From Candidatus Woesearchaeota archaeon (lineage in GTDB: Archaea > Nanobdellota > Nanobdellia > Pacearchaeales > GW2011-AR1), in assembly GCA_964601175.1 (NCBI GenBank), contig CAZRMJ010000004.1, forward strand, positions 1 to 63,218: DNA of 63,218 nt. Direction: 5' to 3'. Below the pieces are notes generated by a model. That model worked only from the letters and a program-made list of their open reading frames with translations, did not search any database and was not told the origin of the DNA. Positions 4,393-63,216 of this stretch are shown here, piece by piece. The position numbers and the translations under genes are program-made. Each line of letters starts with the position of its first letter. The first letter of the stretch is position 1.

Positions 4393-4683
4393 TTACCATT
4401 CAATTTTGTCTATCTCAACTTCATCATAGACAATTTCTTTAAGTTCATAAAACTTCAAAGTATCTGGAACTTGATCATCGAAATACCTTATTTGATAATC
4501 CTTATCAGTTTTAGAATCAAAAAGCTCGATCAACATTTCTTTAGTAGTTTTATAGTCCTCAAAAACATAATGGGCATCTACCTCAAGTTTCTTACCATTT
4601 ACAGTTATAAAGTCCCCTTTCTTAACGTCTGAAAGCTTCTTAGATTGCTTAACCACATTCATGTTACAGAAGAGAATAATCAA
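4393..4683 (-). CDS. Hypothetical small protein (start may be the internal Met at 4662)
   Basis: 96-aa ORF filling the gap on the dominant coding strand; no recognisable motif. Confidence 0.35.
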   Translation of the reverse strand: MIILFCNMNVVKQSKKLSDVKKGDFITVNGKKLEVDAHYVFEDYKTTKEMLIELFDSKTDKDYQIRYFDDQVPDTLKFYELKEIVYDEVEIDKIEW

Positions 4684-4700: not shown

Positions 4701-4747
4701 TATAGTCAAGGACTCTCAAAATTGAACAAGTTTTGTCTTTGACTATA
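4701..4747. other. Long intergenic hairpin (13-bp stem, 21-nt loop)
   Basis: TATAGTCAAGGAC (4701-4713) pairs with GTCTTTGACTATA (4735-4747) with one G.T. The loop contains, on the minus strand, ACTTGTTCA, the same 9-mer as the apex of the tRNA-associated H2 hairpins. Confidence 0.4.
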
Positions 4748-4755
4748 GTACAATC

Positions 4756-5514
4756 TTAATCTAAAATATGAGGCTTACACATCTCATAACCCTCATCAAT
4801 GGGGCTATAACCAACTAGATTTTTAGTTTCATTCAAATCCATATATTCATTTTTGCTCTTAGAAGAACCAGCAAGAATTGCAAATTTCAGGTCTTTTGAA
4901 GCAAATATACTTTTATAGATTAATTGAGCAAAATCCCTCTGAGAAATAATATAATCAAAATTACTTCTAGTAGGGCAAGCAATCTTTAACATAGAATCAG
5001 AAATATATGCACCTATTCTAATAGCAAAACAACTCAAACCATAAGTTGCAGAATAAACATGACACATAGATTCAACAAAAACTTTAGTAGCCCCATAATA
5101 ATTCAGAGGTTTACCTGCATCAGCAGATTTAACATTTTTCCCTATAGAATATCCTCTAATAGCATGAACGCTACTAGCCATTATTACTCTTTTAATTCCA
5201 ACGCGTTTAGCAGCTTCTAGAACATTATAGGTCCCAATAATGTTAGGCTCAATAAAATTCATAAAATTTTGGTCTTTCTCATCAGAATTTCCCGCCAAAT
5301 TAATTACTACATCAAAACCAGAGAATACTTCCATCAAATTATTTAAATCAGACAAATTAACTTTAACAGTCCTATATCCTGAAAGAGGAGTCTTATTTAT
5401 TCCAACAGTTAAGTCATATTTATCTCTATAATTTTTATCATATTCCTCTAAAAAACTAGGCCCAATAGAATTCAACCTTTTCCCAGTCAATCCAATAATT
5501 AAAACTTTCATCAT
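4756..5514 (-). CDS. NAD-dependent epimerase/dehydratase family protein (short-chain, Rossmann)
   Basis: 252 aa; N-terminal VLIIGLTGKRL glycine-rich loop and YGATK (YxxxK) catalytic motif. Confidence 0.7.
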   Translation of the reverse strand: MMKVLIIGLTGKRLNSIGPSFLEEYDKNYRDKYDLTVGINKTPLSGYRTVKVNLSDLNNLMEVFSGFDVVINLAGNSDEKDQNFMNFIEPNIIGTYNVLEAAKRVGIKRVIMASSVHAIRGYSIGKNVKSADAGKPLNYYGATKVFVESMCHVYSATYGLSCFAIRIGAYISDSMLKIACPTRSNFDYIISQRDFAQLIYKSIFASKDLKFAILAGSSKSKNEYMDLNETKNLVGYSPIDEGYEMCKPHILD

Positions 5515-10082: not shown

Positions 10083-11543
10083 TTAGTTACTTCCAAGAAC
10101 TAATTCTATAAGTTCCATTGCTTTTTTAGCATCTATTTTACCCTTAAGTTTAGACATTAAAAGACCCATATATGCATTAGCCCTCATGCCAGGTTTCTCC
10201 TTGACAATTTTTCTTATTTCTAATTCTATTTCATCATCATTAACTTTCTCTATTTTAAGAGCATCCTTAACTTTAGATCCAGAAAGAACCTTAGAAAGAA
10301 TAGGTTTAACATCTCCAGAAACAATATTTTCATCTGCAAGCTCTCTAAGAACTTCAGCATATACAGTTTCATTCAAAATAGACCTAATTTCAGAAAAAGA
10401 TTTTTTATTTTTAGAAGCAAACTCCTGCCTCCAAAGAGTCACCATTTTAGCAACTAAATTAGCATCCATTGGATAGATATCTAATAAAACATTAAACTCA
10501 TCAAACAATTCCGAATCATCTAGAACAAGTTCAACCAAATCTTCTGAAACTCCTTTTTTACGCAATTCATCTCTAATATCCGTTTTGAGTTTAGGCAAAC
10601 TTTTTTTCAAATGATCTACTCTCTGTCTTCCAATTCTCAATAAACTCAAATCAGTTTCAGGATACATCCTATCAGCCCCAGGCATAGGCCTAAGAAATTC
10701 ACTAGTCCCATCAGGTAAAGCATTTCTAACATCTCCAGTAATCTTTTTTTTCTTAATATTTTCAATCTGCCTAGAAATTTCAGTGTCTATGGTTTTAATC
10801 ATCATTTTAGGATCTTGAAATCCTTTTATCTCAACCCTATCATGTCCTTTAATAGAAATATTAACATCTTGTCTTATTGTGCCAATACCTCTCTTAACTT
10901 TACAGGCCCTCAATATTTCTCCAATTTTCAAGGCACATTCCTTAACTTGTTCAGGACTAGTTAGATCTGGATATGTAGCTATTTCGACTAAAGGAATTCC
11001 AAGTCTATCCAATCTATAAACTACCTTTTCCTTGCTTCTAGAAATTACTCTCGCAGAATCTTCTTCTAAACAAACCGAAGCAACTCTAACATCACCATAA
11101 GAAGTTTCAATCAAACCATCATGAGCAATCAAAACAGTTCTTTGAAACCCACTAGTATTTGATCCATCAATAACCGTTTTCCTCATAACTTGAGTTACTG
11201 GATAAATCTCACAATTAAGAAGTAAAGAAACAGTAAGTGCTGTATTTAGCGCTTCTTCATTAACATTTTCAGGAGGCGCTTCATCAAGTTCAACTAAAGA
11301 AACCGTATCTTTATACCCTTCATAAAAAAATTTCTTTCCAAGAGAAGTTTCATGAACTACAGCAGTATCAACTTCTCCGCTCTCTCCAGCAACAGCATGA
11401 AGTTTCCTTTCAATAACATAATCAGGTTCATCATTTCTCAAAAAAGAGGGTGCTCCAGAAAACAACTTAGGACTATCTATTTGTTGATGTATTTCAAGTC
11501 CCGCTTTAAATCCCAGTCCAATATAATCATGTTTATCATTCAT
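10083..11543 (-). CDS. gatE: Glu-tRNA(Gln) amidotransferase subunit E (short form)
   Basis: 486 aa; N-terminus YIGLGFKAGLEIHQQIDS.KLF, RLDRLGIPLVEI, DVNISIKG, and a YqeY-like C-terminal tail. About 130 aa shorter than GatE as I recall it. Confidence 0.8.
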   Translation of the reverse strand: MNDKHDYIGLGFKAGLEIHQQIDSPKLFSGAPSFLRNDEPDYVIERKLHAVAGESGEVDTAVVHETSLGKKFFYEGYKDTVSLVELDEAPPENVNEEALNTALTVSLLLNCEIYPVTQVMRKTVIDGSNTSGFQRTVLIAHDGLIETSYGDVRVASVCLEEDSARVISRSKEKVVYRLDRLGIPLVEIATYPDLTSPEQVKECALKIGEILRACKVKRGIGTIRQDVNISIKGHDRVEIKGFQDPKMMIKTIDTEISRQIENIKKKKITGDVRNALPDGTSEFLRPMPGADRMYPETDLSLLRIGRQRVDHLKKSLPKLKTDIRDELRKKGVSEDLVELVLDDSELFDEFNVLLDIYPMDANLVAKMVTLWRQEFASKNKKSFSEIRSILNETVYAEVLRELADENIVSGDVKPILSKVLSGSKVKDALKIEKVNDDEIELEIRKIVKEKPGMRANAYMGLLMSKLKGKIDAKKAMELIELVLGSN

Positions 11544-18145: not shown

Positions 18146-18243
18146 ATGGCCCTACGAGGAATACTTCAACTCTTAGTTGAAGTTAGATTACGACTTGTTC
18201 GTAATCGTACGTTCGATTCCTTGAAAATGGCCCTACGAGGAAT
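18146..18243. repeat. 17-nt direct repeat of the tRNA-Arg(TCG) 3' end flanking a 64-nt twin-hairpin cassette
   Basis: atggccctacgaggaat occurs at 18146-18162 and 18227-18243. Between them are H1 ACTTCAACT/AGTTGAAGT (18163-18183) and H2 GATTACGA-CTTGT-TCGTAATC (18186-18206). gttcgattcct (18211-18221) is the inverted copy of the T-loop region at 18238-18248. Confidence 0.85.
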
Positions 18244-18300
18244 CGAACCTCGATCACAGGATCCGAAGTCCCGTATTCTAATCCATTAAACTATAGGGCC
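18228..18300 (-). tRNA. tRNA-Arg (anticodon TCG)
   Basis: Hand-folded 73-nt cloverleaf: acceptor GGCCCTA/TAGGGCC, D loop with GG, anticodon arm CGGGA-CTTCGGA-TCCTG, T arm CGAGG-TTCGATT-CCTCG, discriminator A, no encoded CCA. Confidence 0.85.
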
Positions 18301-46050: not shown

Positions 46051-46071
46051 GCTGGCCAGCATATCAATTTT

Positions 46072-46143
46072 GGCTGTGTAGCTTAGTGGTAGAGCGCGAG
46101 TCTCATAAGCTCGAGGTCGGGAGTTCAATTCTCCCCACAGCCA
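46072..46143 (+). tRNA. tRNA-Met (anticodon CAT; elongator-like, but Ile2-type cannot be excluded)
   Basis: 72-nt cloverleaf: GGCTGTG/CACAGCC, D arm GCTT-AGTGGTA-GAGC, anticodon arm CGAGT-CTCATAA-GCTCG, T arm GGGAG-TTCAATT-CTCCC, discriminator A. Confidence 0.85.
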
Positions 46144-46259
46144 TTAGAGAATTGAATGGAGTTCAATTACTTTAACTCGTAAGAGTTTAAGTCACATTTG
46201 TGACTTGTTCACAAATAGTGCTCCCCACAGCCATTAGAGAATTGAATGGAGTTCAATTA
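46131..46259. repeat. 39-nt perfect direct repeat (tRNA-Met 3' end plus 26 nt of trailer) flanking a 51-nt twin-hairpin cassette
   Basis: ctccccacagccattagagaattgaatggagttcaatta occurs at 46131-46169 and 46221-46259. Between the copies are H1 CTTTAACTC-GTAA-GAGTTTAAG (46170-46191) and H2 ATTTGTGA-CTTGT-TCACAAAT (46196-46216). Confidence 0.9.
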
Positions 46260-46267
46260 ATCAATAA

Positions 46268-46633
46268 TCAAACTCTAGTCAAAAATCTCAGACCATCCGA
46301 GTCTTTTCTTGGAATTACATGAAGGTGAGCATGCATAACTTGCTGACCTGCAACACTCAAGTTGTTCATAATTAAATTAAATCCATCTCCGTATCTTTTA
46401 TCCATTAAATCTGATGCAATTTTTTTAGTAAAGTCGAGCATTTCTGCTCCAAATTTATTAGGAATATCAAGAAGAGTAACTAAATGCTGCTTAGGAATAA
46501 CAAGAGCATGTCCTTTGATACTTTGATCCTTATCAAGAATAGAAACAAAAGAATTACTCTCTGCAATTAAATCAGATTTAATCTCTTTTCTAACTATCTT
46601 GCAAAAGATGCAATCCTTGTCTGATTTAACCAT
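46268..46633 (-). CDS. HIT-family (histidine triad) nucleotide hydrolase
   Basis: 121 aa; CIFCKI.. and HAHLHVIP. Confidence 0.85.
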   Translation of the reverse strand: MVKSDKDCIFCKIVRKEIKSDLIAESNSFVSILDKDQSIKGHALVIPKQHLVTLLDIPNKFGAEMLDFTKKIASDLMDKRYGDGFNLIMNNLSVAGQQVMHAHLHVIPRKDSDGLRFLTRV

Positions 46634-49186: not shown

Positions 49187-49259
49187 AGCGCGGAACAGGA
49201 TTCGAACCTGCGAATACTCGGGCTGCAGCCGAGCGCGTTAACCACTTCGCCATCCGCGC
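49187..49259 (-). tRNA. tRNA-Cys (anticodon GCA)
   Basis: 73-nt cloverleaf: GCGCGGA/TCCGCGC, anticodon arm CTCGG-CTGCAGC-CCGAG, T arm GCAGG-TTCGAAT-CCTGT, discriminator U as expected for Cys. Confidence 0.85.
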
Positions 49260-49311
49260 ATACGCATGTATGGAGGATACTGTGAATTTCAATTCACTCC
49301 ATCCGCGCATA
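49250..49311. repeat. 13-nt direct repeat of the tRNA-Cys 5' end flanking a 36-nt hairpin-containing insert
   Basis: ccatccgcgcata occurs at 49250-49262 and 49299-49311 (minus sense TATGCGCGGATGG = 3 leader nt plus tRNA nt 1-10). The insert at 49263-49298 contains GTGAAT-TTCA-ATTCAC. Confidence 0.85.
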
Positions 49312-49331
49312 AAACAACAGATGGAAGTTGT

Positions 49332-49906: not shown

Positions 49907-49930
49907 TAAACAATATCTAGATAGTATATT

Positions 49931-50045
49931 ATGTTCAAATCCTTAACGACCCCGACAGGATTCCTTCAACTTTTAAAAGTTGAATGGGACTGAAGTGACT
50001 TGTTCACTTCAGGATGTTCAAATCCTTAACGACCCCGACAGGATT
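49931..50045. repeat. 32-nt perfect direct repeat (tRNA-Arg(TCT) 3' end plus 18 nt of trailer) flanking a 51-nt twin-hairpin cassette
   Basis: atgttcaaatccttaacgaccccgacaggatt occurs at 49931-49962 and 50014-50045. Between the copies are H1 TTCAACTTTT/AAAAGTTGAA (49966-49985) and H2 CTGAAGTGA-CTTGT-TCACTTCAG (49990-50012). Confidence 0.9.
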
Positions 50046-50104
50046 TGAACCTGCGGCCTGCTGATTAGAAGTCAGCTGCTCTATCCAGGCTGAGCTACGG
50101 GGTC
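50030..50104 (-). tRNA. tRNA-Arg (anticodon TCT)
   Basis: 75-nt cloverleaf: GACCCCG/CGGGGTC, D arm GCTC-AGCCTGGATA-GAGC, anticodon arm GCTGA-CTTCTAA-TCAGC, T arm GCAGG-TTCAAAT-CCTGT, discriminator G. Confidence 0.85.
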
Positions 50105-50127
50105 ACGAAAATGAGAATAAAAAATCC

Positions 50128-63124: not shown

Positions 63125-63216
63125 GCCTCTGTAGCTCAACGGTTAGAGCAATAGTTTTGTAAATCCAGAGATTTCAAAACAACTATAGGTTGGGGGTTCG
63201 ATTCCCTCCAGAGGCT
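63125..63216 (+). tRNA. tRNA-Thr (anticodon TGT) with a ~19-nt canonical 37/38 intron
   Basis: GCCTCTG/CAGAGGC acceptor, D arm GCTC-AACGGTTA-GAGC, anticodon stem ATAGT/ACTAT, loop TTTGTA|intron 63162-63180 (aatccagagatttcaaaac)|A, T arm GGGGG-TTCGATT-CCCTC. Confidence 0.8.

Follow-up and report, generated by a model that had tools for sequence, protein, structure and literature searches.

The small hairpin that recurs three times in the DNA studied here, H2, is probably the variable-stem half of a mobile DNA cassette: a gene-less, non-autonomous, strand-specific twin hairpin that occupies the 3′ ends of tRNA genes. The host of this cassette family is a Nanoarchaeota lineage of the Woese- or Pacearchaeota type; the related genomes are labeled Nanoarchaeota, Ca. 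Woesearchaeota or Pacearchaeota MAGs in public records, and the strain itself is present in wastewater and activated-sludge runs from nine studies. The window, by which we mean the whole 63,218-nt stretch that was analyzed, is contig C4 of a 616-kb genome (G000; 14 contigs, 32% GC, 88% complete) with intron-bearing tRNAs. A sequence-only reading had placed three H2 hairpins in it, all perfectly paired and all capped by a CTTGT loop with GA/TC closing, and DNA folding confirms this: as single-stranded DNA, each has a perfect stem, a 5-nt CTTGT loop and closing G-C and A-T pairs, the stems being 8 bp (plus 3 bp beyond a bulged A) at 46193-46220, 9 bp at 49990-50012 and 8 bp at 18186-18206, with z-scores for the window hairpins of -2.8 to -4.4 against shuffles. 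In all three cases H2 is adjoined by a second hairpin, H1 (consensus CTTCAACT..AGTTGAAG), and the two together make a cassette of 44-51 nt just 3′ of an intact tRNA gene. The features of the three loci are as follows.

46071..46144, + strand: tRNA-Met(CAT), intact, target of the cassette with the focal H2 (ARAGORN; Rfam tRNA, 74.1 bits)
46131..46169, + strand: Met proximal 39-nt direct repeat (sequence reading; k-mer repeat scan)
46170..46191, + strand: Met H1 hairpin, CTTTAACTC-GTAA-GAGTTTAAG, with one T.T mismatch (DNA fold -3.8 kcal/mol, z -2.8)
46193..46220, + strand: Met H2, the focal hairpin, CAC-ATTTGTGA-CTTGT-TCACAAAT-A-GTG (DNA fold -6.9 kcal/mol, z -2.8; cassette-profile match)
46221..46259, + strand: Met distal 39-nt direct repeat, identical to 46131-46169 (sequence reading; k-mer repeat scan)
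50029..50105, - strand: tRNA-Arg(TCT), intact (ARAGORN; Rfam tRNA)
50014..50045, - strand: Arg(TCT) proximal 32-nt direct repeat (sequence reading; k-mer repeat scan)
49963..50013, + strand: Arg(TCT) 51-nt cassette (sequence reading; profile; DNA fold)
49965-49984, + strand: Arg(TCT) H1, TTCAACTTTT/AAAAGTTGAA (sequence reading; DNA fold)
49990-50012, + strand: Arg(TCT) H2, CTGAAGTGA-CTTGT-TCACTTCAG (sequence reading; profile; DNA fold)
49931..49962, - strand: Arg(TCT) distal 32-nt direct repeat (sequence reading; k-mer repeat scan)
18228..18300, - strand: tRNA-Arg(TCG), intact (ARAGORN; Rfam tRNA)
18227..18243, - strand: Arg(TCG) proximal 17-nt direct repeat, the tail from A58 plus one base (reading; repeat scan)
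18210..18222, + strand: Arg(TCG) inverted T-arm copy, reading CGTTCGATTCCTT on + (reading; repeat scan)
18163..18206, + strand: Arg(TCG) cassette (reading; profile; DNA fold)
18163-18183, + strand: Arg(TCG) H1, ACTTCAACT-CTT-AGTTGAAGT (reading; DNA fold)
18186-18206, + strand: Arg(TCG) H2, GATTACGA-CTTGT-TCGTAATC (reading; profile; DNA fold)
18146..18162, - strand: Arg(TCG) distal 17-nt direct repeat (reading; repeat scan)

Each window cassette is thus bracketed by direct repeats of the local tRNA's own tail, 39, 32 and 17 nt long, which start in the T-loop, and between tRNA and cassette there is an inverted T-arm copy (IR) that complements positions 53-63. At the Met locus, the proximal repeat comprises tRNA-Met from C61 to its end, TTA, the inverted T-arm copy GAGAATTGAA (46147-46156), TG and a direct T-arm copy, GAGTTCAATTA; at Arg(TCT), it comprises the tRNA tail from A58, TTA, the inverted T-arm copy (+ strand GTTCAAATCCT, 50016-50026) and AT. 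The inverted copy at 18210..18222 is complementary to the T-arm of tRNA-Arg(TCG), including that tRNA's unusual TTCGATT loop. ARAGORN and Rfam find the tRNAs upstream of cassettes complete and contiguous, and there are no ORFs inside the cassettes. An insert of a different kind is found at the 5′ end of a tRNA: there, the 5′ end of tRNA-Cys(GCA) (49187-49259, - strand) is duplicated, within 49250-49312, as a 12-nt repeat (ATGCGCGGATGG in the tRNA frame) that brackets a 37-nt insert with the hairpins GTGAATT-TC-AATTCAC and CATAC-GCAT-GTATG.

Scanning all 37 tRNAs of the genome for tail repeats gave eight cassettes, at Arg-tcg, Arg-tct, Met, Gln-ttg, Lys-ttt, Ile-tat (two) and Leu-tag, and two relics, at Leu-aag (truncated) and Lys-ctt (IR only). 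A cassette profile run over the same genome returned 7 copies and one truncated one as significant matches, all at tRNA 3′ ends, with no significant match away from tRNA ends; the eighth cassette, a variant behind the second tRNA-Ile(TAT), was picked up by the tail-repeat scan. The two near-identical tRNA-Ile(TAT) genes, on C11 and C12, differ both in their introns and in their cassette types. Introns are common in the tRNAs of this genome, some of them long (Tyr, Glu, Ile, Thr, Val), as at 63125-63216 of the window and on other contigs.

Two layouts of the cassette can be told apart once H1 and H2 are read in the tRNA frame, where they are written H1′ and H2′. In type A the order is tRNA, spacer, IR, H2′, H1′ and tail copy, so that the cassette is antisense to the frame of the sequence-only reading; in type B it is tRNA, spacer, IR, direct T-arm copy, H1, H2 and tail copy. 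The tail repeats start at A58 in type A, at C61 in type B and at T54 in a third insert family at tRNA ends, type C. The latter (L022, at tRNA-Arg-tcg of the relative G009, and L059 and L060, at tRNA-Glu-ttc) has a conserved right end, AACTTTT..AAAAGTTGTAT directly before TTCGA, and contains the hairpin ACTTGT-TT-ACAAGT, in which the apex word of H2 forms the stem. No single insertion rule could be derived for the type A and type B junctions, although one was attempted.

Tail repeats of 17-44 nt flank every copy, the shortest form being 17-19 nt, and a perfect 17-nt tail repeat was found in 25 of 31 copies. Arrays contain 1-3 units; tandem arrays pair identical long repeats with different cassettes, truncated older units lie distal to newer ones, and the tail repeat runs through the IR wherever an older copy already occupied the site. 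Composite or internally repeated cassettes also occur (L150 and L151, at tRNA-Arg-tct of G001 and G008; L139, at tRNA-Lys-ttt of G009; L067, at tRNA-Ile-tat), with at least 3 hairpins, or up to three tandem internal units, between tRNA and tail copy. One and the same cassette lineage is found at many different tRNAs, each time with that tRNA's own tail copy. Cassettes at different tRNAs of one genome are 15-25% diverged, yet their repeats are perfect, and this combination is odd for recent intragenomic transposition. At T-stem base 63, the IR usually agrees with the local tRNA (14 of 18 sequences by manual count). In the genome studied here, however, the spacer, IR and H2 stem are identical between the Arg-tct and Lys-ttt copies, at the price of a mismatch at Lys-ttt, and hence the IR travels with the cassette in first insertions. 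A derivation of the H2 stem from the anticodon arm of the local tRNA was rejected since the same stem is found at different tRNAs. In viral contigs, no match to the IR..H1′ pattern was seen, and 20 matches of a 17-mer there lack the hairpin context and were dismissed as chance.

What is conserved in H2 is not what it first appears to be. The sequence-only reading called the apex invariant, and copies in the same genome already contradict this: the Lys-ttt copy has GAGCAGGTC at its apex on a stem identical to that of the Arg-tct copy, and the Ile-tat copy has GACTTGCTC. Pattern scans blind to H2, anchored on IR and H1, covered 41 relatives, 401 genomes of the family and metagenome contigs and, together with fetched regions, yielded 35 distinct type-A H2 hairpins. 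Sixteen of these carry GA-NCAAG-TC in the tRNA frame (9 exactly), 2 carry the loop in flipped form while stem and flanks stay as they are (L031, L053), and the remaining 17 differ in the loop (for example TTCG, TGAT, CGCTCT, CTC or TAT). The apex is thus a majority motif and not an invariant one. In other genera the same layout is found with unrelated H2 sequences, and these are still hairpins of 8-9 bp. The 9-mer ACTTGTTCA had also been noted on the minus strand within the hairpin at 4701-4747; it is indeed there, at 4723-4731, but the fold does not display it as a GA/TC-closed loop. That hairpin, a large AT-rich one in a 72-nt gap between the minus-strand ORFs 4393-4683 and 4756-5514, was rejected as a relative of H2, being intergenic and unrelated, and the shared 9-mer is probably chance; two further occurrences in the window, at 10945 and 52314, are both outside hairpins.

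The stem, by comparison with the apex, holds up well. For 21 distinct homologous copies with invariant flanks (GGATTTGAACATC..TCCC) and an unambiguous alignment, 95.7% of the cells of the 9-bp H2 helix are standard pairs, versus 78.9 ± 1.6% with shuffled partners, a level that none of 500 shuffles reaches, with the qualification that related copies are non-independent and p-values are therefore optimistic. Slid-partner controls are 30-40% paired. Changes on both sides are seen in 8 of the 9 pairs, and there are 30 compensatory cells where 7.1 are expected. The covariation claimed from three stems is therefore strong on the larger sample; as for its being fully compensatory, this is true of the three window copies, whereas about one-fifth of the copies in relatives have one stem mismatch. 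H1, in contrast, is for the most part invariant and retains a C.A mismatch or a bulged purine, and both H1 and the flanks are conserved while the H2 stem sequence drifts, faster than the flanks. Pair counts support both helices, and the irregularity of H1 is, by analogy, the kind of feature that proteins read on folded DNA sites.

The sequence-only reading attributed this pattern to selection on structure, in RNA or in single-stranded or cruciform DNA, rather than to decay of a common ancestor. The stems are indeed kept paired by something that works on the structure, beyond shared ancestry, and the choice can be narrowed to DNA. Only 1 of 186 H2 cells is a G-U pair, and A.A, T.C and T.T make up the cells that do not pair; in an RNA helix that changes via transitions, many G-U intermediates would be seen, and their near-absence therefore indicates pairing under DNA rules. 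Several observations favor single-stranded or cruciform DNA over RNA: G-U pairs are scarce, the cassette occurs in both orientations with respect to tRNA transcription, loops are in rare cases flipped, and strains differ in whether they carry the cassette. It should be kept in mind that the covariation shows that the hairpin forms in DNA and is no proof of host use; even in the absence of selection, hairpin-templated correction at replication could give rise to compensatory changes.

The second line of evidence is the direction of the cassettes. In all eight copies of the genome, the H1-to-H2 frame lies on the locally C-rich strand, whatever the direction of the tRNA. For the relatives, regions of 10 kb on either side of the copies were examined in 13 genomes and every tail-bracketed insert was classified. 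The tRNA was on the G-rich strand in 18 cases versus 4 for type A and in 0 versus 7 for type B (Fisher p = 2.1e-4), and for 25 of 29 copies the H2′-to-H1′ reading fell on the G-rich strand (binomial p = 1e-4), GC skew being only a proxy for replication direction and also following gene orientation; tRNAs free of inserts split 26 versus 20. Cassette direction is thus set by local DNA strand asymmetry and not by the direction of the tRNA. That all three window copies read CTTGT on the + strand had been given a chance of about 0.25; it is an instance of this rule. Strand bias had also been raised with respect to replication direction, and relative to GC skew the bias is strong, which would point to a link with replication.

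Third, the cassettes come and go between close strains. Contigs from run X17 that are 98.8% identical to the window bridge the Met and Arg-tct loci without a cassette. At the Met locus, 39 letters stand in place of 46157-46269, and among them the IR and a decayed relic of older date are still present; at Arg-tct, 49911-50013, that is, the cassette and the distal repeat, gives way to 20 other letters, and the tRNA, TTA, IR and AT are retained. These are RNA contigs, of a strain that lacks both cassettes, and so are uninformative on cassette transcription. Among species-level relatives (about 75% identical), tRNA-Arg(TCT) sites are found both filled and truly naive, without even the IR, and every tRNA-Met site seen is empty. 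No excised or circular form of the cassette was seen.

From these observations we propose the following mechanism. The hairpins would be active in single-stranded form, on the G-rich strand, probably the template of lagging-strand synthesis. H1 would be the sequence-specific recognition hairpin and H2 a structural one, for which an RCAAG loop may be preferred without being required. Insertion would target the T-arm and duplicate the tRNA tail, with the tRNA gene staying whole, and propagation would need both hairpins folded. The route might be a candidate strand-specific recombinase or transposase acting in trans, or else template switching during replication between tRNA loci via the conserved T-arm. 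Covariation would then reflect selection for transmission of the cassette together with hairpin-templated correction, rather than a function of host RNA. Searches of the genome, 88% complete, for a mobilizing enzyme revealed no Cas1 (PF01867), Y1 HUH transposase (PF01797), TnpB, serine recombinase, IS110 or DDE_Tnp_1; a XerA-like recombinase (C2:67949-68422) and an integrase are present.

Of the alternatives, the one that survives best dispenses with an enzyme altogether. Here the hairpins stall the fork, and the nascent strand copies a cassette from another tRNA locus via T-arm homology and returns at the T-loop AATCC, duplicating the tail, while the matched changes and the loop flips come from hairpin-templated correction. 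Such a process would account for the failure of the searches to turn up an enzyme, for the strand bias and loop inversions, and for repeats of 17-44 nt that always begin in the conserved T-loop and extend through the IR at formerly occupied sites; the match of the inverted copy to the local base 63 is a further point in its favor. Nevertheless, we consider it unlikely. It leaves unexplained why H1, its imperfection and the flanking ATCC and TCCC are conserved while H2 drifts. Moreover, microhomology at the tRNA-distal switch point is weak, and template-switching events are normally rare, yet cassettes sit at 8 of 37 tRNAs.

It is improbable, in our estimation, that the cassettes are scars or miniatures left by an integrase. 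According to this explanation, a tyrosine integrase recombines a tail-bearing attP with the tRNA gene, deletions leave the arms (an H2 side and an H1 side), and the hairpins are arm-type binding sites. A tail repeat that spans from T-loop to tRNA end is what an att site classically looks like, the tandem and heterogeneous arrays look like tandem integration, and the genome does have an integrase (C14:2-970) by a tRNA-Ser att tail from A58, with an empty allele on C12. However, the tRNA-Ser integrase elements, in this genome and in G006, lack the inverted T-arm copy, H1 and H2, and within the genus the integrase was detected in just 8 of 17 genomes, versus verified cassettes in about a dozen. 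Nor would it be expected from this explanation that a single cassette lineage occurs at many tRNAs, each with its own tail, or that there are two orientations relative to the tRNA, governed by strand skew; and a double-stranded circle of 85-100 bp would seem an implausible integrase substrate. A link to the genome's own integrase was rejected for the same reasons: the att sublocation is shared, but its elements are without IR, H1 and H2, and the integrase is patchy in the genus. As an aside, the tyrosine integrase gene at C14:2-1042 is about 55 nt from the tRNA-Ser tail copy (AATCCTGGTCCGGGCG, from A58), which is followed by the same flank as is found after tRNA-Ser(GCT) at the end of C12 (13226-13348). 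From the shared flank it follows that attR and the empty allele were both assembled, and the whole has the look of an integrative element present in part of the population.

Very unlikely, given the DNA-type pairing, is a functional RNA, in which the pre-tRNA 3′ trailer, or else an antisense transcript, would contain folded H1 and H2 that serve in processing, in termination or as a small RNA. Covariation of hairpins is the usual signature of RNA, and the position directly downstream of tRNA genes makes co-transcription likely for type A; in E. coli, tRNA-linked repeats (TLRs) with the same layout are transcribed, some are processed small RNAs, and they bind Hfq and CsrA (PMC8144298). Set against this are the single G-U in 186 cells, with mismatches that are A.A, T.C and T.T and not wobble, the two orientations relative to the tRNA, as a result of which the transcript would carry different loops, the hypervariable H2 loop and the dispensability of the cassette between near-identical strains. 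There is also no Rfam match: in Rfam 15, with gathering and E-value thresholds, tRNA alone passes, and the best other match in the cassettes has 14.3 bits (E = 2.7). By eye, hammerhead, C/D-box and H/ACA motifs are not consistent across copies. A tRNA-like cloverleaf on the opposite strand was rejected because the T-stem and the 3′ acceptor partner are absent. A T-loop intron was rejected too: the tRNA is complete without splicing, so that removal of the insert is not needed for a mature tRNA, and no bulge-helix-bulge was found by eye, the inverted T-arm copy pairing unbroken and without bulges across the would-be 5′ splice site.

Finally, that three unrelated hairpins came to share one 9-mer by accident is vanishingly improbable, indeed already refuted: the enrichment of GACTTGTTC is, taken alone, modest (exactly 3 in the window versus 0.52 expected, and at least 3 in 2 of 100 shuffles), but H1, the tRNA-tail repeats and the position at a tRNA are common to all copies, the cassette profile gives E-values of 1e-17 to 1e-5, and there are dozens of homologues in relatives.

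With the mobile twin-hairpin cassette as the preferred reading, it is useful to ask which known systems it resembles. By layout, the closest published analogue is the E. coli TLR, which is reportedly to be found in Egan and Landy 1978 and Rudd 1999. We found no described archaeal equivalent in the literature, with the TLR as the only analogue. TLRs lie directly downstream of tRNA or rRNA genes, in groups of one to five units per locus, and the last 18-19 bp or so of a unit repeat the 3′ end of the gene before it; their origin and mechanism are unexplained (PMC8144298). Likewise, our cassette is directly downstream of a tRNA, with a minimal tail repeat of 17-19 nt and arrays of 1-3. By contrast, TLRs are found in bacteria and are longer; a core of two hairpins and an inverted T-arm copy are not part of their published description, nor has a strand rule or strain-level turnover been reported. 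The likeness is one of layout and description, and cross-domain sequence homology is not expected.

By mechanism, the IS200/IS605 elements and their kin, PATEs and REP/REPIN-RAYT, invite comparison, with their small defining hairpins, structure kept over sequence and non-autonomous copies. IS200/IS605-derived PATEs have hairpins at both ends of a short gene-less element, as H1 and H2, folded as DNA, do here. The orientation of IS200/IS605 is said, by Ton-Hoang et al. 2010, to be tied to the replication strand; that of our cassettes is biased relative to GC skew (25/29), a proxy for replication. The differences are also clear. IS200/IS605 elements insert 3′ of a short motif without target duplication, whereas the cassette duplicates a tail of 17-44 nt, and the genome has no Y1 transposase (PF01797). 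Such transposases are present in 6 of 16 relatives, and the likeness there extends to end hairpins with a constant loop and covarying stems; these hairpins, however, are GC-rich (CCGNNGC-AGA-GCNNCGG) and unlike H1 or H2, and a link was rejected on the ground of unrelated end hairpins. Four of these genes, L128-L131 (G009:C48, G004:C25, G003:C45 and G015:C43), have GC-rich flanking hairpins in which the loop (AGA or TTTA) is constant and the complementary stems vary, e.g., CCGCAGC-AGA-GCTGCGG and CCGATGC-AGA-GCATCGG.

Elements that integrate into tRNA genes share with the cassette a direct repeat of the tail from the T-loop and an intact tRNA, and the genome's own integrase element has the same sublocation. 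They differ in that the cassette is gene-less, that its tail is always that of the local tRNA, and that one lineage is found at many tRNAs in both orientations; the integrase elements have neither H1 nor H2. Integron attC and the attP(+) of CTX phage are folded single-stranded recombination sites, strand specific, with a conserved structure and a varying sequence. Fixed stem irregularities, such as those of H1, are recognition features in these sites. For the cassette, unlike for them, there is no context of an IntI-type integrase, the target is the tRNA T-arm, and the target duplication is long. Long target duplications, and new units placed next to a "leader," here the tRNA, are reminiscent of casposon or CRISPR Cas1, and casposon targets have reportedly been seen at tRNA 3′ ends. 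As differences, there is no Cas1 in the genome, casposon-type terminal inverted repeats are absent, and the inserts are a conserved hairpin family.

An intriguing if tentative extension is that the cassettes are substrates of an unrecognized structure-guided system for inserting single-stranded DNA. Such a system would recognize the T-arm hairpin that any tRNA gene extrudes on the lagging-strand template and would add the 51-nt twin hairpin, always in the same direction with respect to the fork, while a duplication of the tail would keep the gene intact. As its enzyme, either the XerA-type tyrosine recombinase of the host or an as yet unrecognized protein might serve, and the tRNA-linked repeats of E. 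coli may owe their existence to the same process.

In any case, the DNA-type pairing rule, the apex statistics and the strand rule are new in this analysis, and together they provide a quantified case of a DNA hairpin that keeps its pairing through many double substitutions while its sequence outpaces its flanks in drift. The strand rule is a mechanistic clue, as it separates the cassette from integrase-type insertions at tRNAs and aligns it with the mobility of single-stranded DNA. The cassette family also offers, in an archaeon, a tractable counterpart of the E. coli TLRs, for which an explanation of origin has been sought since 1978. For the organism itself, a 0.6-Mb symbiont-type DPANN archaeon, the finding means that about a quarter of its tRNA genes have been colonized by a gene-less cassette, and for DPANN genomes in general, the family may be a source of tRNA-gene fragments and rearrangements.
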